Assembly: GCA_965222875.1 (NCBI GenBank)
Contig: CBDCVC010000002.1
Span: forward strand, 1,172,723 to 1,236,722
From: Candidatus Multivorans sp.
GTDB taxonomy: Bacteria > Acidobacteriota > Thermoanaerobaculia > Multivoradales > Multivoraceae
Length of the DNA stretch: 64,000 nucleotides
Reading direction: 5' to 3'
In this document: positions 27,932 through 63,639 of the stretch, piece after piece
Numbering within the stretch: position 1 is the first letter of the stretch
How the letters are laid out: each line of letters begins with the position of its first letter
Program-made: the position numbers and the translations under genes
The notes under the pieces: generated by a model
Seen by the model: the letters and a program-made list of their open reading frames with translations, nothing else
What the model was told of the DNA's origin: nothing
Databases searched by the model: none

Positions 27932-28279
27932 TCAGCTCGAAACGAGATCGTCCAGGCAAACGCCGAGGGCGTCAGCAAGGCGCCGGAGCGTATGGACGGA
28001 ACCGGTTCGGCGAGCTGCTTCGATCTCAACGATCTGGACCCGGCTGGTGTCGGCGGCACGGGCCAAGGCGGCCTGTGAGAGGCCTCGGTACTCTCGCCAC
28101 ACCCGCAACGGCGGCTCGCCATCGATCAAGCGGTTTACCACCGTCTCGGGAACGAGCTCCTCGGTGCCGGCGTCGATTCTCGCCTGAACGGCGAGCGCGG
28201 CCCGGATGTCGACCGAGTCTTCCTCAACGGCGCGCAAGCGCTGGTATTCGGCCTTCGGGATCGTCACGGTCTCGGTCAT
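27932..28279 (-). CDS. XRE-family HTH antitoxin
   Basis: PLRVWREYRGLSQAALARAADTSRVQIVEIE; lies immediately downstream of a RelE-like gene. Confidence 0.88.
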   Translation of the reverse strand: MTETVTIPKAEYQRLRAVEEDSVDIRAALAVQARIDAGTEELVPETVVNRLIDGEPPLRVWREYRGLSQAALARAADTSRVQIVEIEAARRTGSVHTLRRLADALGVCLDDLVSS

Positions 28280-28282
28280 GGG

Positions 28283-28537
28283 TCACTCCCTGTAGGCGCT
28301 GCCACGGCTGGCGACGTGCAGAATCTCAAGACGGTCGGCATCGCGCATGATGACTCGCCAGTCGCCCATGCGGAGTCGGAGCAATCCGCCGGAGCCCCGA
28401 AGGCGGGAGACCTTGTTCGCCTGCGAAGCGGGGTCTTCGACGAAAGCCCGGATCTTGCGGCGCAACCGGATGGCGTGGTTACGAGGCATGCGAGTGAGGA
28501 CCCTCACGGCGCTACGGCTGTAGACGATGTCCTTCAC
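28283..28537 (-). CDS. RelE/ParE-family toxin
   Basis: MKDIVYSRSAVRVL...LRLRMGDWRVIM...ILHVASRGSAYRE. Confidence 0.88.
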   Translation of the reverse strand: MKDIVYSRSAVRVLTRMPRNHAIRLRRKIRAFVEDPASQANKVSRLRGSGGLLRLRMGDWRVIMRDADRLEILHVASRGSAYRE

Positions 28538-28539
28538 CC

Positions 28540-29230
28540 GGGGAATGTAGCGTTGCGCGACAGTGTCGTCAAGAGCGACACCCGCGCACCCGTCGGTGAA
28601 TCACCGATGATGTCGCCATCGGTGTGGGCAGGGCCAAAGTGGTACAGCTCGATGCGGTCAATGTGAACCGCCCAAGCGTAGATCCTGCCCGGCAGTCTGC
28701 TTGTGTCCGCGACGAATCCCTTCTTTGCCATCGTTCATGAGGAAGTACGCTCCGGTGATCCAGTCGCCCAAGGTGTTTGCCACCAGGATGTCGATGTCGC
28801 CGTCGCCGTCGATGTCGCCGACCGCGGCGTTATGCGTGTAGCCCGTCGGATCGGGTGGGAGCCGGTCGGTTGCGTCCACGTAGCCAGCTGCGGTCCACAG
28901 CAGCTATTGGTTGTGCCAGCCGGGGAACGGGGGTCTGTCGTAGCCATGGTCGGCGATGAAGAAGTCCTTTCTGCCGTCGCCGTTGAAATCGTCCATCAGG
29001 ACTTCGCGTTGAGCTATGCCGCGGGGGCGGTCCCCGGCAGCGACCTCGAAGGTGAAGTCCCCGTTGTTGATGAGGACGATCCCGTCCGCCGGACTAAGCG
29101 CGATGTCCGACGGCGCTAACAGCACGTCGTCGTCGCCGTCGTCGTCGAAGTCGGCCGCGAAGGGAAGCAGATGGACATCGTCGTAAACGACATCAGCGAT
29201 CCAGACGACCCCCTCGTCGGCTATGGACCC
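28540..29230 (-). pseudogene. Degraded FG-GAP/VCBS-repeat protein fused to an MBL-fold hydrolase fragment
   Basis: DFDDDGDDDVLL, DFNGDGRKDFFIAD and GDIDGDGDIDILVAN repeats; in-frame TAG at 28904-28906; frameshift near 28725; then RIELYHFGPAHTDGDII. Confidence 0.75.
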
Positions 29231-52974: not shown

Positions 52975-54354
52975 CTAGAACAGATCGCTGTCGCCCTTCG
53001 TGTAGTAACCCCGGCGCAGCAGCGACACGGCGTCGCCGCGGACGAAGGGCGCCAGCCCGGTCACCAGCCCCTGCGGTTCGGGGCGCCGGACAAGGCCGAG
53101 AGCGTCCAGTTCCCTTGACAACCAGCGGGGCCGATCGCTGAACCAACCGACGATCGGAAGGCCGGGCGCCCGCATCTCGGCAACCAGCGCGCGCAGGGCC
53201 GGCCGCTCGGCCGGATCGACCAGGGCATCGCCCCATTCCACCCGATCGGGCAGACGCGTCGCCGCCACCCACGCCGCCAGACGTCCCCGCCGGTAGGCGG
53301 CGATCAACTCGGGGCCCTCGGCCGGGCAGTCGAGATAACGCCAGCGCAGGTACTCGGCGGAGCGCTCGACCAGCAATCCGTAGCGGTCGCTCACGCGCTC
53401 GAACAGGGCATCGAACGCGGCGTCGACTTCTGAACGCTCCGTGATCCGCCGCAGATCGTAGCGGCGGCAGAGCCGGGCGCTGCGGCCGAGCCGGGCCGCG
53501 GGCGGCAGCTCCCGGTAGGGCGCCTCCTCCACCTGCCGCACGTTCAGAAAGCGATTGGAGAACTTCAGGATGTTGCCGGTGTTGAAACCGTAGTTGAACG
53601 CGACCCGGCCCTTGCAGTTCACGAGATAGAAGTGCCTCGCCGCCCGCGCGAGCAGACTCGTCGGCCCGCGGCCGACGGCGCGGGCGCTGCGCCGCGTCAT
53701 CGTGTCGCCGACCTGGTGGCTGTCGGCGGGGCTCGTCGGCGGCAGGCCATGCCAGCGCACCGGGTACGCGCAGTACTGGCAGACCAGTTCGCCGCCGGGC
53801 GAGAACGCGAGCGAGATCCGGGGACCGCCCCGGGGGTTGTGGTGGTACTTCCAGGCCCAGTGCTTCAGGCAAAGGTCGCTCCGGAAGCTGTCCCGGAACA
53901 AGTCGAGAATCGCCTGCTCGTCCCCCGGCCGGTAGCTGCGGAAACGGTACCCGTCGCGGCGAGCGCGCACCACGCGGAACGGCGGCGCCGCTTCGTGCCC
54001 CGGAACCGGCGCCGGCAGACCGGCCCGCTCGGCGACCGGCCGGAACCCCGCCTCCAGCAGATCCACGATCAGCCGGTCGTAGCCGCTCGGCTCGGACTCG
54101 CAGGCGGCGGCGTCGTACGCCCACCCGATCGCCACCTCATCCGGCAGTTCCTCCGCGGCGCCGACCGCCTCCGAGGCGATCACCAGGCGAAGCCCCTCCG
54201 GCTGCACGGTCTCCCCACCGCCCCGGCGCAGCACCGCCGCGACCGCCTGGTCGAGACCGCCCTCCGGCGCCACCCCCGCACGGCGGCGTTCGAGGCAACG
54301 ATGCCAGGCTTCGGCCGCTGCAGCGGCCGTCTCCGCGCCGCGCTCCGCGTTCAC
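52975..54354 (-). CDS. GNAT-family acyltransferase with N-terminal extension
   Basis: FRSYRPGDEQAILDLF...W.WKY..NP, QVGDTMT...AR..GRG, YGFNT, ERSAEYLRWRY; typical of polysaccharide-locus GNATs. Confidence 0.75.
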   Translation of the reverse strand: MNAERGAETAAAAAEAWHRCLERRRAGVAPEGGLDQAVAAVLRRGGGETVQPEGLRLVIASEAVGAAEELPDEVAIGWAYDAAACESEPSGYDRLIVDLLEAGFRPVAERAGLPAPVPGHEAAPPFRVVRARRDGYRFRSYRPGDEQAILDLFRDSFRSDLCLKHWAWKYHHNPRGGPRISLAFSPGGELVCQYCAYPVRWHGLPPTSPADSHQVGDTMTRRSARAVGRGPTSLLARAARHFYLVNCKGRVAFNYGFNTGNILKFSNRFLNVRQVEEAPYRELPPAARLGRSARLCRRYDLRRITERSEVDAAFDALFERVSDRYGLLVERSAEYLRWRYLDCPAEGPELIAAYRRGRLAAWVAATRLPDRVEWGDALVDPAERPALRALVAEMRAPGLPIVGWFSDRPRWLSRELDALGLVRRPEPQGLVTGLAPFVRGDAVSLLRRGYYTKGDSDLF

Positions 54355-54364
54355 GCCCGCGATG

Positions 54365-55426
54365 TTACTTCGGCCCGCCGAGATCCCGGCCGGCCCCGTC
54401 GCTCACGCGAATCCACAGGTCGGACCTGGCGCCCTGTACGACATCCGGCGGCAACTCGAAGTCCGGCACGCCGCCACCGTCAACGTGACAGCCCGCAGCA
54501 GGCACGCCCAGCGGCAGGGGCGTGACCTCGACCCACGCCTCGCCGTCCACTGGCCCGGCCGGAAGCGGCGGCGGATCGGCGAAGCGCCGGGGCAAGCGTT
54601 CGAGGAGCCGGAGCAGCGCCGCGAACCAGGCGCCGTAGCGGCGCCGGCGGAACCGCGCCATCGACTGCTCGAACCACTTCTGCGCGCGAGGTTCAAGCTG
54701 CGCGCTCTGGTCGTAGGCGTGAACCGCGCGCGCCGCCGGAACCAGGACCGCCCTCGCGCCCAGCGCCCGCGCGCGAAGCAACCAGTCGGTCTCCTCGAAG
54801 TAGAGCCGGTAGCCCTCGTCGAACGGTCCAACCCGGCGCCAGCAGTCCCTTGTCATGGCCAGGCAGGCGCCGGTCAGCTCGAAGCAGGGCACAGGTTTCC
54901 GGGCCGACCAGAGAGCACGGGCGCGACGCCGCCACCGGCGGCGGTAGGAACGGCCCCAGGCCGCCGATCGCTCGGCCCAGACCGCGTCCAGTTCGGCGGC
55001 GCGCGTACGGACCTGCTGCGGCGGCAGCATCAGCCGGCAGTCCCGATCCCAGAACAGCCTCGGACCCGCGATGTCGGCCTCGCCGAGCGCCTCGACGAGC
55101 GCCCTCAGGCACCCCGGTTCCACGACGACGTCCGCGTTCATCAGCAGCACGACATCGCCTGCCGGCGCGCGGGCGCCGAGATTGATCCCGCCCGCGTAGC
55201 CCAGGTTCGAGGGCGGCTCGAGAACCCACGCCTTGACACGCTCCAGGTCGAGGTGCTCCGCCGGCCCGCCCGACCGGGCGCCGTTGTCCACCACGATGAC
55301 GTCAAGGCGCAGACCGGATGCCCGCGCGTCCGCCTGGAGCGCCTCCACCGCCGCCTCGAGGAGCCGAGGCGTCCGGTAGTGGACGACGACGGCCGTAATG
55401 GCCGCGTCGCTGAGAGCGCCAGTCAC
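54365..55426 (-). CDS. Glycosyltransferase family 2
   Basis: IVVDNG, NLGYAGGINLG, LMNADV, GPFDEGYRLYFEETDW. Confidence 0.92.
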   Translation of the reverse strand: MTGALSDAAITAVVVHYRTPRLLEAAVEALQADARASGLRLDVIVVDNGARSGGPAEHLDLERVKAWVLEPPSNLGYAGGINLGARAPAGDVVLLMNADVVVEPGCLRALVEALGEADIAGPRLFWDRDCRLMLPPQQVRTRAAELDAVWAERSAAWGRSYRRRWRRRARALWSARKPVPCFELTGACLAMTRDCWRRVGPFDEGYRLYFEETDWLLRARALGARAVLVPAARAVHAYDQSAQLEPRAQKWFEQSMARFRRRRYGAWFAALLRLLERLPRRFADPPPLPAGPVDGEAWVEVTPLPLGVPAAGCHVDGGGVPDFELPPDVVQGARSDLWIRVSDGAGRDLGGPK

Positions 55427-55427
55427 C

Positions 55428-56225
55428 TCAGATCTCGTCCGCAAGACCATCCTTCAACCGGGCAAACAGGGCGCCGCCCAGGATGAGAGCGCCGGCGGCG
55501 CAGGCGAGAAGCGGAACCAGGCTGACCCGAAGCCCTCCGCCGAGGAACGCGGCCCGGTAGAGGTAGACCAGACCCGTCAGTGGGTTGAGCTCCAGCACCT
55601 GCCGAACGGTCTCATTCGGGGCCACGTTCACCGAGTAGATGATCGGCGTGACGTAGAACCACGTGTTCAGAATCAGGCCCGCGGCCTGCGCGACGTCCCG
55701 GAAGTAGACGTTCGCCCCCGCCAGACCCAATCCAAGGCCGAAGGTCAGCGCCACCTGCAGGAGCACAGCGACCAGCAGCAGAGGAAGGCTGGCGACGGAG
55801 AGTTCCCCCATCACGGCCAGGACGACGATGAACGCCAAGGCGCCCACCCCGGCGTGGAGCAGGGCGCCGAGCACCAGGGACGCCACCAGCAGCTCCCCCG
55901 GCAGCCGCATCTTCTTGACCAGGTCGGGGTTGTCCGTGATCGCCGACGCGGAACGGCTCAGCCCCTCGTGGATCGCGAACCAGGGCAACAGCCCGCAGAA
56001 CAGGAAGACGGCGAAGCTGTCGGTCTGCTCTCCATCGAGCGGGAAGCGAAGCACGAACGAAAACACGAACGTGAACAGCAGGAGCTGCCACAGCGGGTTG
56101 AGCAGCGACCACACGAGACCCAGTGCCGAACCCGCGTAACGCGACCGGAGGTTCCGCACCACCAGCTCGCGCAGCAGGAACAGGTGCTGCCGGCGACGCC
56201 GGCCGCCGAGAGACGCATCACCCAC
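55428..56225 (-). CDS. wzm: ABC-2 polysaccharide export permease
   Basis: RNLRSRYAGSALGLVWSLLNPL, YFRDVAQ, WFYVTPIIYS, LNPLTGLV..YR. Confidence 0.93.
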   Translation of the reverse strand: MGDASLGGRRRRQHLFLLRELVVRNLRSRYAGSALGLVWSLLNPLWQLLLFTFVFSFVLRFPLDGEQTDSFAVFLFCGLLPWFAIHEGLSRSASAITDNPDLVKKMRLPGELLVASLVLGALLHAGVGALAFIVVLAVMGELSVASLPLLLVAVLLQVALTFGLGLGLAGANVYFRDVAQAAGLILNTWFYVTPIIYSVNVAPNETVRQVLELNPLTGLVYLYRAAFLGGGLRVSLVPLLACAAGALILGGALFARLKDGLADEI

Positions 56226-56709
56226 TTGCAGCCCTCCGGGAAGGCCCTGGTGTCTTCGCGCGGATCCTCACTCGGTGATTATCCCCGACAAGCGGAAATA
56301 GAGCGTTGAGGAAGCCGGCACAGCCGCCAGCAGGCAAACTACCCAGGCGGCAACTCGGCTGAGCCCGTTGCGTTCCTCATGCACCACTCTGTGCTCCACG
56401 GGGCCGGCGGAACCCGGATTATTCCACAGAAGAGACGGGCAGCCGGCCCTTGGAGGCGCCCCTTTTCTCCGGAACAGGCCGACCCCCCGAAACGCCCTCC
56501 CGCTCGCTGCGGCCTCTCGGCGAACCCCGGAAGAAGTCGACCGGAGTTCCGTGACCTGCAGGTCTGCGTGGAAGTAGCGCTTCTACAGACTAAGACGGAA
56601 AACCGTCCCAGTTCTTACATCGCCTCTGGAAGCCGTTTGTTTCCAGCGATTTGGGGGGCGTCGCAAACACCGGGTGCACGCTGTGGCGGACCCAGTGCCG
56701 GCGCGACAC

Positions 56710-57765
56710 TTAGCCGCCCACCGGGAACGGGTTCTCCGGCACCAGCTCCGCGGCCAGACTCGCCGCGCTGTCGTCGGGGCAGTTGACCGTGAACGCCGCT
56801 TCGAGGCCGTCCGGCTCGAGGCTCGGAATGACCTCCTCCACCTCGGCGACCGCAACGGTCACTATCTGCTCGTTCAGGCGATCCGGGTCGTTGTTGGCGG
56901 CCAGACAGCGGTCGTCGTCGGCGCCGACAATCAGGGCCCACTGGAGCACCCCCGCTTCGCCCGGCGCCGGCGCCTCGCCCGTCCGGCTCTCCAGCGTCAC
57001 CGTCAGGACGCTGCTGTGGTGCTCGGCAACTGCCGTCGCATAGACCTCGCCGGTGGTGATGAAGTTCGCTCCCATCAGCCTCACCGTGACCTCCTTGGCC
57101 GCAGCGCTGCCCGTCGGCCGGATGACCCTTGGCGGGCTGGCCACAAGCGACCAGCCGGCCGCCGACCCCAGGTGGCAATCCGTGGCGGTCGCCTCTCCCA
57201 CCTCACCGCTGCAACCGGGAAGCGGCTTCTCGGGAATGATGTGGGGAATGATCCCGACCCGCCCGGTCGGTGTGTGCTTGACGAAGGTGGCGGCGCCGTC
57301 TTCCACGGTGCTGAGCGTCACGCCGCCCGGATCGGTCGGCTCGATCTGCTCGTTGCCGAGGACTCTCTTCGGGATCAAGGCCGAGACGGCAGAGTTCGTC
57401 TCGTCGTTGATCCAGTACCACCCGCCGTCCTTCAGGCCCTTGATCTCGATGGTACCGCCGTCCTGGGCCAGGCAGGCGAAACCGTTCGCCGTCGTCAGCG
57501 CCTGGCGCACGATCCCCTTGCTGTCCGGCACGACCGTGGCCGTAATCGTCACGTTGCCACAGATGACGAAGAAGCTGACCTCGCTCTCATCCACGTCCGC
57601 CGTGTCCCCGTCGTCCTCGCTGGCCGCTTCGCCCACGAAGCCGCCGTTGCCGACGTAGTACGGCGCAATGTGACAGTTCTCCTCCGGGCAGTCGACCGAG
57701 ACCTGGCCGAAGAGCAGCGCGGGGACCGCGCCGAGCAAGAGCGCGAGAGGGATAGGGTGCTTCAC
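56710..57765 (-). CDS. Secreted 8-Cys protein, paralog P1 (unknown family)
   Basis: Signal peptide; shared motifs GGWYWIND..NSAV, GRVGIIPHI, C-terminal ELVPENPFP; GTG start behind AAGGAG. Confidence 0.85.
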   Translation of the reverse strand: MKHPIPLALLLGAVPALLFGQVSVDCPEENCHIAPYYVGNGGFVGEAASEDDGDTADVDESEVSFFVICGNVTITATVVPDSKGIVRQALTTANGFACLAQDGGTIEIKGLKDGGWYWINDETNSAVSALIPKRVLGNEQIEPTDPGGVTLSTVEDGAATFVKHTPTGRVGIIPHIIPEKPLPGCSGEVGEATATDCHLGSAAGWSLVASPPRVIRPTGSAAAKEVTVRLMGANFITTGEVYATAVAEHHSSVLTVTLESRTGEAPAPGEAGVLQWALIVGADDDRCLAANNDPDRLNEQIVTVAVAEVEEVIPSLEPDGLEAAFTVNCPDDSAASLAAELVPENPFPVGG

Positions 57766-57923
57766 TGCTTTCTCCTTGTGGGGCGCGTCGGGGCTTCGAT
57801 GCTGCGAGGGTCCAGGGGCTCACCCAGAGATGAATAGCATCATTGCTATATCACACTGTCCCACCCGCACCGATGCGGCCACCCCCAACTGGGTGCGGCC
57901 GGCGTACGCGGTGGTTGCGACTC

Positions 57924-58958
57924 TTACCCGTCGACCGGGAAGGGGTTCTCCGACACCAGCTCCGCGCCCGCAGCCGCCGCCTGGCTGGAGGGGCAGTTGA
58001 CCGTGATCGTGGTCTCCACCTCGTCATTGGGTACATCGGGGACGACGCCGTCCAGTTGGGCAATGATGAACGTGACGATCTGCGCCGTTTCGCGATCCGG
58101 ATTGTTGTTCCCAGGCAGGCACCGTGTGTCGTCGGACCCTACCTCCACCGACCAGCCGAGGACGCCCGACTGGCCCTCGGCCGGCGCCACGCCAACGTCC
58201 TGGTTGAAGAAGATCCCCTGAACGCTCGTGTGGTGCTCGACTCTCGCCCTCGCGGTGACCTGCCCCGTACGGACGAAGTTCTCGCCGTGGAGCTTGACGA
58301 TCACTTCCCTGGACTGCTGGCTGCCGGTGGGCCGGGTGACGGACGAGGGGCTCGCGGAGACGCGCCAGCCCTCCGGCGACCCTAGGTGGCAGTCCCTCGC
58401 GGATTCCTCTGTCGCCATGCCGCTGCAACCCCTGATCGGCCGCGTGGGCACGATATGCGGGATGATGCCCACCCTGCCGGTCGGCTCGTGCTTGACGAAG
58501 GTGCCGAAGCCATCCTCCTCCCTGTCGACCACGATGCCGCCCGGGTCGGTCGGGACGATCTGCTCGTTGTCGGCGGCGTCCTTGGGGATGAACGCGGAAA
58601 CCGCCGAGTTCCGGTCGTCGTTGATCCAGTACCAGCCGCCTGGTTTGAGGTTGGCGATCTCGAGCCGGCCGCGGCGCCCGTCACCGCAGGAGAAGCCATC
58701 GGCGTCGCTGAGGGACTGGCGGACGATGCCCTGGCTGTCCGGCTCCACGACCCCTGAGGTCGTCACATTGCCGCAGATCACGAAGAACGTGACGTCGGTG
58801 TCGCCGCCCACGCCGGCGGCCTCACCGACGAAGCCGCCGCTGCCCGCAAAGTACGGCGCCAGTTGGCAGGTTTCGTCGGGGCAGTCGACCGTGATCTGGC
58901 CGAACAGCAGCGCCGGTGCGGCACCGAACAGAAGTGCGACGGGGATGATGTGTTTCAC
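57924..58958 (-). CDS. Secreted 8-Cys protein, paralog P2
   Basis: Same motifs as P1, ends ELVSENPFPVDG; RBS AAGGAGG. Confidence 0.85.
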   Translation of the reverse strand: MKHIIPVALLFGAAPALLFGQITVDCPDETCQLAPYFAGSGGFVGEAAGVGGDTDVTFFVICGNVTTSGVVEPDSQGIVRQSLSDADGFSCGDGRRGRLEIANLKPGGWYWINDDRNSAVSAFIPKDAADNEQIVPTDPGGIVVDREEDGFGTFVKHEPTGRVGIIPHIVPTRPIRGCSGMATEESARDCHLGSPEGWRVSASPSSVTRPTGSQQSREVIVKLHGENFVRTGQVTARARVEHHTSVQGIFFNQDVGVAPAEGQSGVLGWSVEVGSDDTRCLPGNNNPDRETAQIVTFIIAQLDGVVPDVPNDEVETTITVNCPSSQAAAAGAELVSENPFPVDG

Positions 58959-58967
58959 TGCTCCTCC

Positions 58968-60125
58968 TTACCTCGGCGCGCAGACGATCGCGAGCCGCGC
59001 GGAGGCCCCGTAGGTGCCCTCGGAAGTCCGCGTGAAGCCGGCGTCGCGTCCAACGGCGACCGCCGGATGCACGGCGTTCTCGCCAGGGGTGGCGTAGACA
59101 CGAATCGTCGCCGTGTGCTGCGTGCCCGTGGACGGGCAGTAGTCGTCGCTCGCCGCAATCGTGATCGTCGCCTGGCCGGGTGGGGTCGAGCCGGACCCGT
59201 CCGCGGTCAGCGTGACGCCCGCGCCGGCGAGATCGCCAGTCTGCGGCGTCGCGCCGGAGAGACCCAGGGAGAACGTGGCCGTGAGCCAGTTCGCGTTGTG
59301 ATCGTCCTGGCCCGAGGCCGTCGTGCCGACCCAGCCCTTGCGGATGGATTCCGCGCTGGGGCCGCCATTGTCGCTCGTGTCCGTCGAGTAGCTGCCGCTC
59401 TCGTCGACCCAGAGATCGGCACTGACCGTGATCTCCCCGGCAACCGGTCGCGTCACCGACCCGGTCGTGATCATCGCGCGGCTGTTGTAGGCACCCGGGC
59501 CGATCAGCCGGACCTTCGTGTTGGCGCCGCCGAGCACGCAACTGCCCGTCATCTGGCGGTCGTACGCATACGGCCAGCTCGGGTTGCGCCGCGGCCCGCA
59601 GAACTCCGCCCGTTCCGCCCGGGGCCGCGGCAGGATGTTCGGCAGAATGCCGACACGACCGGTGCTCGTCTCCTTGAGGAAGACGGCGCCCTTGCCCGCC
59701 GACATGGTGACGCCGGCGCCGGCGCTGGTCAGATCGACCGTGTCGTTGTCGAGAACCTCCCTGGCAACCAGGTTGCCGACGGCGGAATTCTCTTCGTCCG
59801 TGATCCAGTACCAGCCGCCATCCTTCAGGCCGGCGATCTGGAGGCCGCCCTCCTGGTCGCAGGCGAGGCCGTTCCGGTGGTTGAACAACTGGGAGGCCGT
59901 GCCGCCGTGGACCCGGGCTTCCCCGGAGATCGTGACGGTGCCGCACGAGACGAGGAAGGTGATGTCTTCCGCCTCCGCGGCGACGGTACCGATGAATCCA
60001 CCCTCGCCCCTGAAGTAGGGAGCGACGTGGCGGCACTCGGGGCAACTGACCTCCTGGGCGAACGCGGTCGCCGGAATCGTCGCCGGAATCGCGCTCAGCG
60101 CCAGCGCGAGCGTGACGTGCCTCAT
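58968..60125 (-). CDS. Secreted 8-Cys protein, paralog P3 (lacks the C-terminal tail)
   Basis: MRHVTLALAL signal; close to P4 over its length; stops at IVCAPR. Confidence 0.85.
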   Translation of the reverse strand: MRHVTLALALSAIPATIPATAFAQEVSCPECRHVAPYFRGEGGFIGTVAAEAEDITFLVSCGTVTISGEARVHGGTASQLFNHRNGLACDQEGGLQIAGLKDGGWYWITDEENSAVGNLVAREVLDNDTVDLTSAGAGVTMSAGKGAVFLKETSTGRVGILPNILPRPRAERAEFCGPRRNPSWPYAYDRQMTGSCVLGGANTKVRLIGPGAYNSRAMITTGSVTRPVAGEITVSADLWVDESGSYSTDTSDNGGPSAESIRKGWVGTTASGQDDHNANWLTATFSLGLSGATPQTGDLAGAGVTLTADGSGSTPPGQATITIAASDDYCPSTGTQHTATIRVYATPGENAVHPAVAVGRDAGFTRTSEGTYGASARLAIVCAPR

Positions 60126-60176
60126 TGTTTCCGTTCGCTCTCTCGGGGCCCTGAAAGGTCGCCTGAAAAGGCGAAA

Positions 60177-60208
60177 CCTCCGCGCCGGGTGTGAGCCCGA
60201 CGCGGAGG
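60177..60208 (-). promoter_or_regulatory. GC-rich stem-loop between P4 and P3
   Basis: cctccgcg ... cgcggagg 8-bp stem with inner cggg/cccg pairing; no poly-U tract, so an attenuator or RNA-stability role is only inferred. Confidence 0.4.
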
Positions 60209-60288
60209 CACCGCTCTTGAAGTCGTTCTTCCTCTGAGCTGCTGGACTCATGCGAGCCCTTCAGCCCGGGGGAGGAATCGGCTGTTCC

Positions 60289-61515
60289 CTACTTGTCGGT
60301 CGGGAACGGGTTGTCCGGAACCAGCTCCTGGCCCTGGTTGGCTGCCGCCCTCGGCGCGCAGACAACCCTTAGCCCCGTCGCGGCGCCGAAAGTGGCCTGG
60401 GTACTGGCGGCGAAACCAGCGGCACGCCCAACAGCCACCGCCGGATGGATGTCGTCCGCGTCCCCGCCAGAGCTAGGTACGGCGATGACATGGATCGTCG
60501 CCGTGTACTGCGTACCCTTGGCCGGGCAGTAGTCACCGTTCGCCGAAACCGTGATCGTCGCCTGACCGTCGCCGACCCCGCTTCCGCCGTTCTCCGTCAG
60601 TTCGACACCCGCGCCAGCGGTATCGCCAGTCTGTGGGTCTCCGCTGTCGAGGGCTATAGTCCACGTGGAAGTGAGCCAGTTCGCGTTGTGATCGCTCTGG
60701 CCGACGGCCGTCTTGCCGATCCAGCCCTTGCGGATGGAGTCCGCGCTGGGAGCTGAATTGGCGCCACTGGTGTCAGTCGAGTAGCTGCCGCTCTCGTCGA
60801 CCCAGAGATCGGCATTGACCGTGATGCTCCCCACACTGGGCCGCGTCACCATGCCGGTCGTGATCATCCCGCGGCTGTTGTAGGCGCCCGGGCCGATCAG
60901 CCGGATCTTCGTCTTGCCGCCGCCGAGCATGCAACTGCCCGTCTGCTGGCCGTCGTAGGCATACGGCCAACTCGAGTTGCGCCGCGGCCCGCAGACCACC
61001 GCCGCCGGAGCCGGAGGCTCTGGCAGGATGTTCGGCAGGATGCCGACACGACCGCTGGCCGCTTCCTTGAGGAAGACGGCACCGCTGCCCATCGTCATGC
61101 TGACGCCGTTGCCAGCGCTGGTCAGATCGGTCGCGTCGTTGTCGAGGATGTCCATGGCGACCAGGTTGCCAACGGCCGAGTTGTCGGCGTCGTTGATCCA
61201 GAACCAACCGCCGTCCATGATCGGGCCGAGCTCAAAGCTGCCGCCCATCTCCGCCTCGCAGGCGTAGTCGCCCGCGAACAGCATGGAGACGACCCCGTCG
61301 TCGTTGGCCTCGAGCTCACCGCTCCTGGTGACGCCGCCGCAAGAGGTGACGAAGGTCACCATGTCGGCGCCGTCGGCTGTTGCAATCATTCCGCCCATGC
61401 CCTTGTAGTAGGACACCGTGTGCGTGCAGTCGTCGCAAGTGACGGTCTGACCGAACGCCATGGCCGGAATCGCGCAGAGAACCAGCGCGATCGTGATGTG
61501 CTTCATCAGCTTCAT
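60289..61515 (-). CDS. Secreted 8-Cys protein, paralog P4 (first in array)
   Basis: RBS AAGGAG; signal peptide ending AMAFGQ; ends VVCAPRAAANQGQELVPDNPFPTDK. Confidence 0.87.
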   Translation of the reverse strand: MKLMKHITIALVLCAIPAMAFGQTVTCDDCTHTVSYYKGMGGMIATADGADMVTFVTSCGGVTRSGELEANDDGVVSMLFAGDYACEAEMGGSFELGPIMDGGWFWINDADNSAVGNLVAMDILDNDATDLTSAGNGVSMTMGSGAVFLKEAASGRVGILPNILPEPPAPAAVVCGPRRNSSWPYAYDGQQTGSCMLGGGKTKIRLIGPGAYNSRGMITTGMVTRPSVGSITVNADLWVDESGSYSTDTSGANSAPSADSIRKGWIGKTAVGQSDHNANWLTSTWTIALDSGDPQTGDTAGAGVELTENGGSGVGDGQATITVSANGDYCPAKGTQYTATIHVIAVPSSGGDADDIHPAVAVGRAAGFAASTQATFGAATGLRVVCAPRAAANQGQELVPDNPFPTDK

Positions 61516-61871
61516 CAGTTTGTTTTCTCCTTGAGCGGCCTTTCGAGCCGCCATTCGTTTACCGGACCGGCCGTTTGCCGGGCCGGGAGTTTCTTTGATC
61601 CGAAGATCAGGCCACTGCAATGCGGACATTCCGCGCTGCCGTGGCCGCTGACGTTTCTCTCTGGACGATCGAATCCCGGCTGAACCGAGCCGCCGACCGT
61701 CACGCGCTGATGCTGCGCATCACCTCCCGATAAAAGACTTCAAGGCCATCTGTCCAATCGTAGGTGGAACCCTAGCGGAAACGACCGAATAGATCCAGTG
61801 GCAGCCAAGCGTTGCGCGGAATGTCGCGGAGCGCCGGGGCGCGGGCGGATCGAAAGGGCCTTCCTGCCGAT

Positions 61872-63140
61872 TCAGTTCCTCCGAGACCAGACACTATAGG
61901 GCCTTCGGGGGGATTCGTCAAGGGTTGGGGGTGTAAGTGTCAAATTATTGAGGGGATTGGGGTTAGGTGCGTCCCAGGCGACTTCGTCGGGGTTCTCCTC
62001 GCCCGGCGCCGGCGGCGCCGCGCGGACCAGGTCGCGCTCGAGGGCCGGAAGCAGAGTGCGGCCGGCGGCGCCCTCGCGGTAGGCGCTGGTTTCGGGCGAC
62101 TCCAGGCGCCGCAGGGCGGAGAAGTGGACCTTCTCGCCGGTGACCAGGGGCCGGCCCTCCTCGTCGCGTTCACCGACCGGCCGGTGGTAACGGCCCCAGA
62201 GCCGGTAGACCAGGGACATCGAGTCGCCCTGCGGTCCGAGTTCGTCGGGCGCCAAGCCGGCGCGGACGGCATCGGGCCGCAGCGCGAGGCCGGCGGCGTG
62301 GGCCCCGGCCCACATCCAGAGCAGGGCGCGGTCGGAGAGCGCGGCGTTCGGGCGGCCGCCGCCGACATCGCTGTGAACGCCGGGAAACCAGAGCTGTTCG
62401 ACGTTCTGGCCGGGTGCCGGCCGGTTCGTCCACAGGGTGGGGGCGAAGGGGCGGCGGGCCTCGTCGATCGCCACCGCGTGGCAGGCGTGCCGGATGTGGC
62501 GGTCGAGCCGCACGTCGTGGAAGCGGTGGCGGCGGGCGCCGACCCAGTTCAGCCAGGTCACCGGCACGCCGAGGGCGCCGACCGTGTCCCAGACGCCGAT
62601 GAAGTGGACCTTGCACGGGGGCGCCGGGCCGGCCGGCCCCCGCTGGCGGCCCTCGGCGCCGCGGGTCACGGCGAAGGTCTCGACGTGGCGCGCGGCGCGT
62701 TCGCTTCGCCCGAAGCCGCGGCGCAGCCGGTAGACCGCCATGCCCTGGAGCGCGACATCCGCCACCCGGAGGCCGGCGGCGGCGCAGCGCTGCGGGTCGG
62801 GGACGCCGCACAGGCCGAGCAGCCCGGCCAGGCTGCGCGCGGTGTAGGCCCCGCGGCTGTAGCCGAACAGGAAGAGCCGGTCGCCGGGGCGGTAGTGCGC
62901 GCTCAGCCAGGCGTAGGCCAGTTCCACGTTGCGAGCGAGGCCCAGCCCCACCACCCCGCCCCGCACCCGGTCGAAGCGGCCGGTGCCGACGCCGCGGTCG
63001 TAGTAGCGGAGCTGCGGTGTGCCCGCCGCAGTCTGCGGCAGCAGCGCCTGGCTCGTCTTGACGACGTTCGTGGGCGACGCCCGGTCGTCGCTGTTCCAGG
63101 TGCCGTCGAAGCAGAGTGCGATGTTGCGTGGGCCGGCCAA
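61872..63140 (-). CDS. DUF2235 (Tle1-like alpha/beta hydrolase) protein
   Basis: IALCFDGTWN, TNVVK, YYDRGVGT, LFGYSRGAYTARSLAG, FIGVWDTVGALG, HAVAIDE.R..F.PTLW, WFPGVHSDVGGG. Confidence 0.92.
   Translation of the reverse strand: MAGPRNIALCFDGTWNSDDRASPTNVVKTSQALLPQTAAGTPQLRYYDRGVGTGRFDRVRGGVVGLGLARNVELAYAWLSAHYRPGDRLFLFGYSRGAYTARSLAGLLGLCGVPDPQRCAAAGLRVADVALQGMAVYRLRRGFGRSERAARHVETFAVTRGAEGRQRGPAGPAPPCKVHFIGVWDTVGALGVPVTWLNWVGARRHRFHDVRLDRHIRHACHAVAIDEARRPFAPTLWTNRPAPGQNVEQLWFPGVHSDVGGGRPNAALSDRALLWMWAGAHAAGLALRPDAVRAGLAPDELGPQGDSMSLVYRLWGRYHRPVGERDEEGRPLVTGEKVHFSALRRLESPETSAYREGAAGRTLLPALERDLVRAAPPAPGEENPDEVAWDAPNPNPLNNLTLTPPTLDESPRRPYSVWSRRN
61893..61921 (-). promoter_or_regulatory. Near-consensus sigma70 promoter for the P4-P1 array
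   Basis: Minus strand TTGACG (61921-61916), 17 nt, TATAGT (61898-61893), in an AT-rich patch that also has a second TTGACA at 61943-61938. Confidence 0.7.
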
Positions 63141-63233: not shown

Positions 63234-63569
63234 CTAGCCCATTCGGAACAGGTTCTGCATCTGCATCGCCAGGCCCATGTCGCCGGCGATGCGCAGGCGG
63301 CCGGTCATGAAGGCGGTCATGCCGTCCAGGCTGCCGGCGGTGAGTTCCACGTAGTCGGCCGCTTCCATCGACACGGTCATCGTCGGCGCGTCGTGGGCGC
63401 CCTCGCCGACGGTGCAGGCGCCGTCCTTGATCGCGCAGTGCCAGACGCCGCCGCCTTCGCCCGAGAGGTCCAACTGGATCACGACGTCGAGACCGGCGGC
63501 GGCTTCCGGGTCGAGACGGCTGGGCATCTGCGAGAAGATGTCGCTGAGGGCGGCGGCGGTATCGGTCAT
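63234..63569 (-). CDS. SCP2 sterol-binding domain protein
   Basis: IQLDLSGEGGG.W...IKDG.C.V.EG....PTMTVSM...D......G.LDGMTAFMTGRLRIAGDMGLAM. Confidence 0.92.
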   Translation of the reverse strand: MTDTAAALSDIFSQMPSRLDPEAAAGLDVVIQLDLSGEGGGVWHCAIKDGACTVGEGAHDAPTMTVSMEAADYVELTAGSLDGMTAFMTGRLRIAGDMGLAMQMQNLFRMG

Positions 63570-63639
63570 CGGGAGGGCTCTCCTGCGGGTCTGGATATCG
63601 GACGTGTCGGAAGGATGGACGGATTCTCCGTAGACGGCT

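Follow-up and report, generated by a model that had tools for sequence, protein, structure and literature searches.

What kind of protein is encoded by the four-gene array at positions 56,710 to 61,515 of a 64,000-nucleotide (nt) stretch of Candidatus Multivorans sp. DNA (GenBank assembly GCA_965222875.1, contig CBDCVC010000002.1, positions 1,172,723 to 1,236,722; the whole stretch is hereafter called the window)? A first-pass annotation of this DNA had described the four genes (P1 to P4) as paralogues coding for secreted proteins with eight conserved cysteines and of no known family, and had proposed that they were subunits of a fimbria, S-layer or sheath, or else a diversified set of adhesins. 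The analysis reported here established that the family is real, undescribed and lineage-restricted. We read the array as coding for abundant, Sec-exported, disulfide-stabilised binding proteins of the adhesin or matrix type, located at or beyond the cell surface, a reading to which we assign an even chance of being right. The 'Ca. Multivorans' group of Thermoanaerobaculia consists of widespread, uncultured symbionts of sponges and corals, and the family bears on the question of how such a symbiont holds on to host matrix or escapes being eaten. Three new searchable elements were obtained, namely a domain of ~140 amino acids (aa), a C-terminal peptide motif and a structured leader RNA of ~290 nt.

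All four open reading frames (ORFs) were found on the minus strand within exactly the limits first assigned to them, and they are transcribed in the order P4, P3, P2, P1 (Table 1). A ribosome-binding site (RBS) of the AAGGAG type or weaker was present upstream of each ORF, third-position G+C was high in P1-P4, proteins in public collections matched all four in length, and homologues of P4 were 50-66% identical to it. The description of four co-oriented genes with signal peptides was borne out, as limits and lengths agreed and each gene had an RBS. The signal peptides, as read from the sequence, have an n-region (K/R, H), a hydrophobic core of 12-16 residues and an A/G-x-A/G↓Q cleavage-type site; the cleavage regions read …FG↓Q or …FA↓Q with an invariant Gln at +1, and inspection of these regions in P1-P4 (…LFG↓Q / …AFA↓Q) revealed no lipobox. 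Export, as originally proposed, is likely given a Sec-type signal on each protein.

Each mature protein has exactly eight Cys residues, all at aligned positions (a ninth in P4 belongs to its signal peptide), and six of the eight were invariant among 144 family members, in keeping with the equivalent positions first reported. A CxxC (P3, P4) or Cx4C (P1, P2) pair stands directly behind the cleavage site. Together, the signal peptides and the eight aligned Cys residues support export and extracytoplasmic folding. The four shared motifs quoted earlier, such as F.V.CG.VT, were all seen in the alignment of P1-P4. Identity was 59% between P1 and P2, ~60% between P3 and P4, and 35-38% across the two pairs. 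The N-domains of the two subtypes were clearly homologous (hhalign E 7e-49), and the C-domains were marginally related (probability 92%, over the last ~50 columns only), which upheld the division into an N-terminal half common to all four and C-terminal halves of two subfamilies. Profile comparison showed the N-domain and C-domain to be unrelated to each other. Mean pairwise identity was 0.49-0.62 in the N-domain and 0.32-0.44 in the C-domain, and E-values among relatives ranged from 1e-50 to 1e-230, far beyond chance. In composition, P4 is acidic and rich in Ala, Gly and Thr.

The profile searches, structure prediction with fold comparison, and survey of taxonomic distribution and synteny that had been suggested as checks were carried out. 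Scans of P1-P4 with Pfam, NCBIfam and PADLOC gave no match above noise, and PDB sequences searched with the 144-sequence profile gave no matches at an E of 10 or less. No characterised enzyme or domain of unknown function (DUF) was matched, and the statement that the proteins belong to no known family therefore held. Literature searches on the genus and on expression of such proteins returned nothing. AlphaFold2 (AF2), run on single chains with alignments of 70 and 74 sequences, gave confident all-beta models, with predicted local distance difference test (pLDDT) values of 87.4 for P1 and 86.7 for P4 and predicted template modelling (pTM) scores of 0.60 and 0.63. In both models, a linker with one Cys pair connects two beta-sandwich domains, and the last ~20 residues are unstructured and of low confidence. 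Foldseek comparison of the P1 and P4 models with the PDB, and of P1 with BFVD, returned only generic tandem immunoglobulin (Ig)-like matches at a template modelling (TM) score of ~0.2 (antibody, invasin, BcpA, BACON-type and tandem Ig-like), so the fold class is ordinary and the family is without a recognisable relative.

An exhaustive hidden Markov model (HMM) search of 1.84 billion representative proteins found 268 clusters matching the family. All of the confirmed relatives (127/127; GTDB, one genome per species) belonged to the Acidobacteriota class Thermoanaerobaculia. They were labelled as 'Candidatus Multivorans', Holophagales or Acidobacteria metagenome-assembled genomes, and came from sponges and a coral. 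One genome may hold at least ten family loci.

An indication of function came from the distribution of the N-domain, which behaves as a mobile module of ~140 aa, a beta-sandwich with two predicted disulfides and conserved aromatic residues (Y/F-Y/F and W-Y-W). In 28 of the 140 best representative clusters, a tandem pair of N-modules formed the extreme C-terminus of a larger protein that lacked both the family C-domain and the C-terminal peptide described below. Pfam domains on these module-tailed proteins included Peptidase_S8 with P_proprotein (a subtilase with a P-domain), Peptidase_M10/Reprolysin (matrixin), Exo_endo_phos with LTD (lamin-tail) and fn3, LRR with Calx-beta, and cadherin with fn3; another protein carries the module N-terminal to an FGE-sulfatase domain. 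The enzyme-borne modules kept one Cys of the N-terminal CxxC/Cx4C pair, and these secreted enzymes and adhesin-like proteins came from the same bacteria as the array proteins. Where a small beta-sandwich recurs at the ends of various secreted hydrolases and adhesin-like proteins, it usually marks a unit for binding or anchoring. The module, which is found on the ends of secreted proteases, a nuclease and adhesin-like proteins, thus looks like a binding or anchoring unit. The N-terminal half had previously been called an assembly domain, paired with a variable, exposed C-terminal domain. Its conservation and the greater variability of the C-domain were confirmed; a role specific to assembly was not, because the same domain also occurs, tandemly paired, on these other secreted proteins.

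The best conserved segment of the family is the C-terminal peptide G-x-E-L-V-P-(E/D)-N-P-F-P-(V/T)-(D/E), the tail, with a mean pairwise identity of 0.61-0.67. It was present in 83 of 161 family ORFs versus 0 of ~900 neighbouring ORFs, and tail-bearing proteins end 2-4 residues past ELVPxNPFP. In one lineage, NPF is replaced by N(A/S)W(S/N)PF. A Ser/Ala-rich stretch precedes the tail and could, speculatively, be a glycosylation site. The P3-type member of the related arrays examined was without the tail, and 28 family ORFs stop right after the last Cys (…VVCP). The first-pass annotation did not mention the tail, the paralogue that lacks it or the leader RNA.

P4 is a separate high-expression unit composed of a promoter, a conserved structured leader, P4 itself and a conserved terminator, with P3-P1 behind the terminator. 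The sigma-70-type promoter candidate falls within the 3'-terminal part of the Tle1-like gene upstream, and by blastn this block was kept in related loci even where the next 90 nt were not. The core of the leader (its last ~290 nt) showed 75-91% nucleotide identity in ~35 related loci, a higher degree of conservation than in the coding regions (orthologues with 50-65% of residues in common). Within the core are several hairpins and a 45-nt block that does not vary and carries a perfect but orphan Shine-Dalgarno (SD)-like sequence, GGAGGTGAT. In an alignment of 31 leaders, 97.6% of cells were paired, as compared to 27-47% in slid controls, and changes on both sides were found in ten pairs (38 cells, versus 12.7±3.8 cells in shuffles). 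An Rfam search of the array, the leader and the whole window gave no match at the gathering score or at an E of 1 or less. The hairpin between P4 and P3 has a U-rich tail, a folding free energy (dG) of -40 kcal/mol and a z of -5.6; all 17 of the related arrays checked had a hairpin with a T-rich tail and a dG of -33 to -45 in the corresponding position, 3' of their first gene.

Three sequencing runs were available from the sample with the exact window sequence. Two gave even, DNA-like coverage, and the third (X3) was small and patchy. We read X3 as RNA because of its patchy coverage and its contigs with poly-T ends. Its handful of contigs in the whole window included four on P4 and its leader at depths of 7-28, with depths of 6 or less elsewhere. 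Those on P4 covered 60252-60401, 60528-60863 and 61297-61447 (depth 7-23). The deepest of the region covered the leader from 61523 to 61876 (depth 28), a position just downstream of the promoter candidate at which this contig, read in the direction of transcription, begins. No X3 contig fell on P3, P2 or P1. A second, independent data set (X8), labelled as a sponge metatranscriptome and derived from a related strain, had its deepest contig of a 14-kb region at 61480-61802 (depth 69), spanning the leader and the start of P4. These depths are assembler contig depths, a crude measure, and they come from a run whose RNA nature is deduced and from a related strain. Few transcripts in host tissue are better represented than that of the lead gene, as judged by contig depth. 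The layout and the RNA coverage fit the major/minor arrangement first suggested, and the evidence points consistently to P4 as the main product, with minor output from the genes that follow the terminator. The P4 leader resembles the STAB-SD and other long 5' leaders of cryIIIA, ompA and S-layer genes in that a long structured leader precedes a strongly expressed exported protein, and in its perfect SD-like sequence with no properly spaced start codon. It differs in being unrelated in sequence and in belonging to no Rfam family.

Locus order was kept across species of Thermoanaerobaculia, the only class in which the family was found: S9 peptidase, SCP2, Tle1-like hydrolase, two to four family genes, ABC-2 permease, GT2, a 459-aa protein, Macro and phosphoglycerate mutase. 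The order of paralogues was kept as well, with a ~400-aa protein with tail (as P4), a tail-less protein (as P3) and one or two ~345-aa proteins with tail (as P2 and P1), and the A / tail-less B / C order was found again in ~20 arrays. The tandem arrangement noted at the outset is thus a conserved one. Upstream of the array are a Tle1-like (DUF2235) alpha/beta hydrolase gene without signal peptide at 61872-63140 (-) and an SCP2 sterol-carrier-like protein gene at 63234-63569 (-), with synteny kept in most orthologous loci. On the 3' side, 52975-56225 (-) holds a conserved trio composed of an ABC-2 permease gene without an adjacent ATPase gene, a GT2 gene and the gene for the 459-aa protein, for which a Pfam scan gave no match.

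The array had also been described as lying next to a polysaccharide export and modification locus. The ABC-2 permease and GT2 genes do follow it, yet at a distance of 484 nt and with no ATPase or export protein beside them. In several relatives other genes are inserted between the array and the ABC-2/GT2 genes, and the ABC-2, GT2 and 459-aa genes are missing from most other family loci. A functional operon with these three genes was therefore rejected as the main explanation, on the grounds of the gap, the insertions and the absence from most other loci. In one distant genome, GT2, Bac_transf and Wzy_C genes independently adjoin a four-gene array. The association with polysaccharide genes is weak and comes down, for the most part, to synteny kept at a single orthologous locus.

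The set of array genes is maintained as A-B-C(-C') across species, yet it diverges faster than its flanks. In the symbiont of a second host species (X4/X5), the flanking genes matched the window at ~99% identity, with 24 differences over 2659 nt, whereas the array pieces that can be placed on window positions 56700-61500 were 84-94% identical, which suggests that the array is a local hot spot of divergence. The window array itself has no inverted repeats and no recent gene conversion tracts, and its paralogues are 70-85% identical at the DNA level. In another member of Thermoanaerobaculia (OZ220482.1), full-length family genes were found between inverted, 5'-truncated copies of up to 2807 nt and 99% identity. 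In one such case the two arms, 1589 nt long and 99% identical to each other, enclose 924 nt with the promoter side and the initial 143 codons. From their sequence, these inverted copies appear to form a system that switches the C-terminal part of the protein by inversion or cassette exchange. Such an architecture is known from inversion-type variation of surface proteins. Separately, long-form members of the family (560-650 aa) have a single or paired tyrosine-recombinase gene as a divergent upstream neighbour (~1-5 kb from the family gene), in many cases accompanied by a histidine-kinase/response-regulator gene. No convincing invertible-promoter repeats or flanking inverted repeats were found next to the paired tyrosine-recombinase genes of the long-form relatives.

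Being lineage-specific, multi-copy, fast-evolving and well represented in its lead transcript, and sharing its module with other secreted proteins, the family is a candidate for the exposed interface of the symbiont. Under the adhesin or matrix reading, the N-module would be a common binding or anchoring unit, whose ligand may be a glycan of the bacterium's own envelope or the host matrix, and the C-domain would be the exposed, diversifying unit. P4 would be the major component, with P3, P2 and P1 as minor components made by read-through. The C-terminal peptide may mediate contact with a partner or between subunits, which proteins of the tail-less P3 type could not make. Several points weigh against this reading. 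In a diderm, a Sec signal is proof of passage into the periplasm and no further, and no secretion system or anchor was found linked to the array genes. The generic fold matches (TM ~0.2) point to no particular ligand or binding site. The RNA support is crude, consisting of contig depth in one run deduced to be RNA and in one metatranscriptome of a related strain, and zero depth on P3-P1 is no proof of silence. The divergence estimate could have been inflated by contigs of paralogous loci placed on the array. Among known systems, the closest parallels to the module are the C-terminal domains of secreted proteases (PPC, PKD, P-domain) and CBMs, which are likewise small beta-sandwiches with conserved aromatics, often in tandem, on subtilases and metalloproteases. 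The module differs from them in having no Pfam match, a length of ~140 aa, two disulfides and a second occurrence as the N-terminal half of stand-alone two-domain array proteins. Vibrio cholerae encodes the biofilm matrix proteins RbmA (tandem FnIII) and Bap1/RbmC between its vps clusters. By analogy, these are secreted beta-sandwich proteins encoded beside glycosyltransferase and polysaccharide genes, with a proposed binding to matrix glycans; they share no homology with the array proteins, which are Cys-rich and carry a C-terminal peptide, and the glycan-gene link of the array is weak and not general.

The structural roles proposed in the first-pass annotation (fimbria, S-layer or sheath subunits) did not fare well, as no known machinery for assembly of a pilus, fimbria or S-layer was found in the window or in 75 related loci and the predicted folds are complete. 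A fimbria-like polymeric fibre, in which the C-terminal peptide of one subunit inserts into the next, head-to-tail, with P4 as major subunit, P1 and P2 as minor subunits and tail-less P3 as terminal cap or base, is nevertheless worth some weight while being unlikely. The tail is the most conserved segment and is specific to the family, a tail-less paralogue is present in each array examined, the layout of major gene, terminator and minor genes is suitable, and the models suggest two-domain beta-sandwiches as in type V and Gram-positive pilins. On the other side, an usher, chaperone, sortase, lipoprotein signal or processing protease is not conserved nearby; the high-confidence models are complete sandwiches with no hint of a missing strand, and the Pro-rich tail (P-x-N-P-F-P) would make a poor beta-strand. 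In agreement with this, Pfam detected no PapD-like chaperone or outer-membrane usher among the window neighbours and two related loci, no such cluster occurred in the 75 loci, and the array proteins had no Pfam match to chaperone-usher fimbrial subunits, their AF2 models being complete rather than incomplete Ig folds. A C-terminal segment has an important part in the assembly of Bacteroidia type V pilins (FimA/Mfa1), whose major and minor paralogues are encoded in a row. The two beta-sandwich domains of the P1 and P4 models are reminiscent of these pilins, but the array has no lipobox or lipoprotein signal, no Pfam or NCBIfam match and no anchor or tip genes, belongs to another phylum and gives no hint of an incomplete fold in the models. 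Other routes to the surface were examined in the same way: no hydrophobic segment follows ELVPxNPFP as sortase/LPXTG sorting would call for; the tail contains VPEN but no helix, Arg cluster or NCBIfam match that would place it with PEP-CTERM/exosortase substrates; and the 9-residue C-terminal element had no NCBIfam or Pfam match to the 80-100 aa sorting domain (TIGR04183-type) of type IX secretion system (T9SS) cargo. Quite unlikely is a scheme in which the module is the receptor for ELVP[ED]NPFP within an extracellular docking scaffold, a cellulosome-like display platform. Tail-bearing P4, P2 and P1 would chain head-to-tail or coat the cell, tail-less P3 would cap the chain, secreted proteases, nucleases and adhesins with the tandem module pair would dock onto free tails, and the platform would be expressed from the dedicated structured leader RNA and diversified by recombination. 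As in cohesin-dockerin systems of the cellulosome, one module occurs both in stand-alone, scaffold-like proteins and at the ends of diverse secreted enzymes; by Pfam there is no homology, and Ca-binding dockerin repeats are not present here.

An S-layer or sheath lattice built from P4 is improbable. Long structured leaders are typical of S-layer mRNAs, and P4 is, by contig depth, very highly expressed from a long, structured, conserved leader. The acidic, Ala-, Gly- and Thr-rich composition would suit a lattice protein, and the inversion-type cassettes of the relative recall, by analogy, the inversion-type sapA variation of Campylobacter fetus. Gram-negative S-layer proteins are usually Cys-free and larger, as opposed to the four likely disulfides here; Pfam and NCBIfam scans matched no SLH or other known anchoring domain and no known S-layer family, and the same module is also carried by enzymes and there are many paralogous loci per genome. 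We give a similarly low probability to proteins that remain in the periplasm without surface exposure and act in binding, in a chaperone-like manner or in redox chemistry through the N-terminal CxxC/Cx4C, a position directly after the cleavage site that would suit them, as would a Sec signal with no linked secretion system. If they were ordinary periplasmic proteins, the value of the finding would fall to that of a new DUF. A periplasmic role is less likely because the module is fused to extracellular-type domains (subtilase with P-domain, matrixin, cadherin, fn3, LRR, Calx-beta, LTD); enzyme-borne modules retain just one Cys of the pair, and fast divergence and multi-copy expansion suit exposed proteins better. 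Very improbable is the idea of host-directed effectors whose C-terminal NPF mimics ligands of endocytic proteins and interferes with phagocytosis by sponge cells. NPF ligands bind eukaryotic EH-domain endocytic proteins, the tail has an invariant N-P-F core with an acidic residue after it, and the family is limited to invertebrate symbionts. Disulfide-rich Sec substrates are not expected in the host cytosol, however, and no translocation system is linked to the array; N(A/S)W(S/N)PF replaces the core in one lineage, and the conserved flanks (ELVP…P) lie outside the eukaryotic motif.

Table 1. Features of the P4-P1 array and of related loci. Positions are those of the window unless a locus is named.
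Feature	Position	Strand	Description	Basis
P4	60289-61515	-	408 aa; first gene; type A paralogue; tail ELVPDNPFP at 60301-60327; signal peptide, N-module (~aa 27-165), larger C-domain, tail	ORF and RBS
P3	58968-60125	-	385 aa; start MRHVTL; type B paralogue; build as P4 (~60% identity); ends directly after last Cys (…IVCAPR, stop); C-terminal peptide absent	ORF
P2	57924-58958	-	344 aa; type C paralogue; tail ELVSENPFP at 57936-57962; N-module, small Ig-like C-domain, tail	ORF and alignment
P1	56710-57765	-	351 aa; second type C paralogue; 59% identical to P2; signal peptide aa 1-20; N-module aa 26-178 (57232-57690); Cys185-Cys197 linker; C-domain aa 206-330; tail ELVPENPFP at 56722-56748	ORF and alignment
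Promoter candidate, sigma-70-type	61893-61921	-	TTGACG-17-TATAGT, 10/12 matches	
5' leader of P4	61516-61886	-	~370 nt; conserved core of ~290 nt at 61516-61810	RNA contigs and conservation
Terminator-like hairpin	60165-60212	-	Between P4 and P3; 14-bp G+C-rich stem, then UUUCGCCUUUU	
Inverted-copy loci, OZ220482.1	L039 1653-11800; L043 5327-13729; L031 4290-14233			
Recombinase-linked loci	L027, L029, L030, L036, L038, L040, L046, L050, L051, L062			

Some further features of the window and of the related loci were recorded. A second, unrelated family (clusters c20/c42) was found near some family loci (L032 11555-16418; L008, L063 and others); its members are secreted and have (PD)n linkers and a Cys-containing C-terminal domain of ~110 aa (…GYTDC…CYETA…LWFF…VKVLDGC…). 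The region 239-26321 of the window contains three TonB-dependent receptors, an FGE-sulfatase, a sulfatase, three DUF3604 proteins, a PQQ dehydrogenase and a TetR regulator, a cluster typical of sulfated-glycan use by sponge symbionts. A ParE-toxin-like gene followed by a helix-turn-helix (HTH, Xre-type) gene at 27932-28600 (-) is probably a toxin-antitoxin pair. A scan of the window DNA found no tRNAs. An IS110-family transposase gene (DEDD_Tnp_IS110 and Transposase_20) is located at 42506-44221 (-), with a low-depth RNA-like contig at 42689-42935. At the end of the window (63629-64000), contig depth rose 5- to 20-fold in the DNA-like runs, which may reflect a repeat or sequence common to many members of the community.

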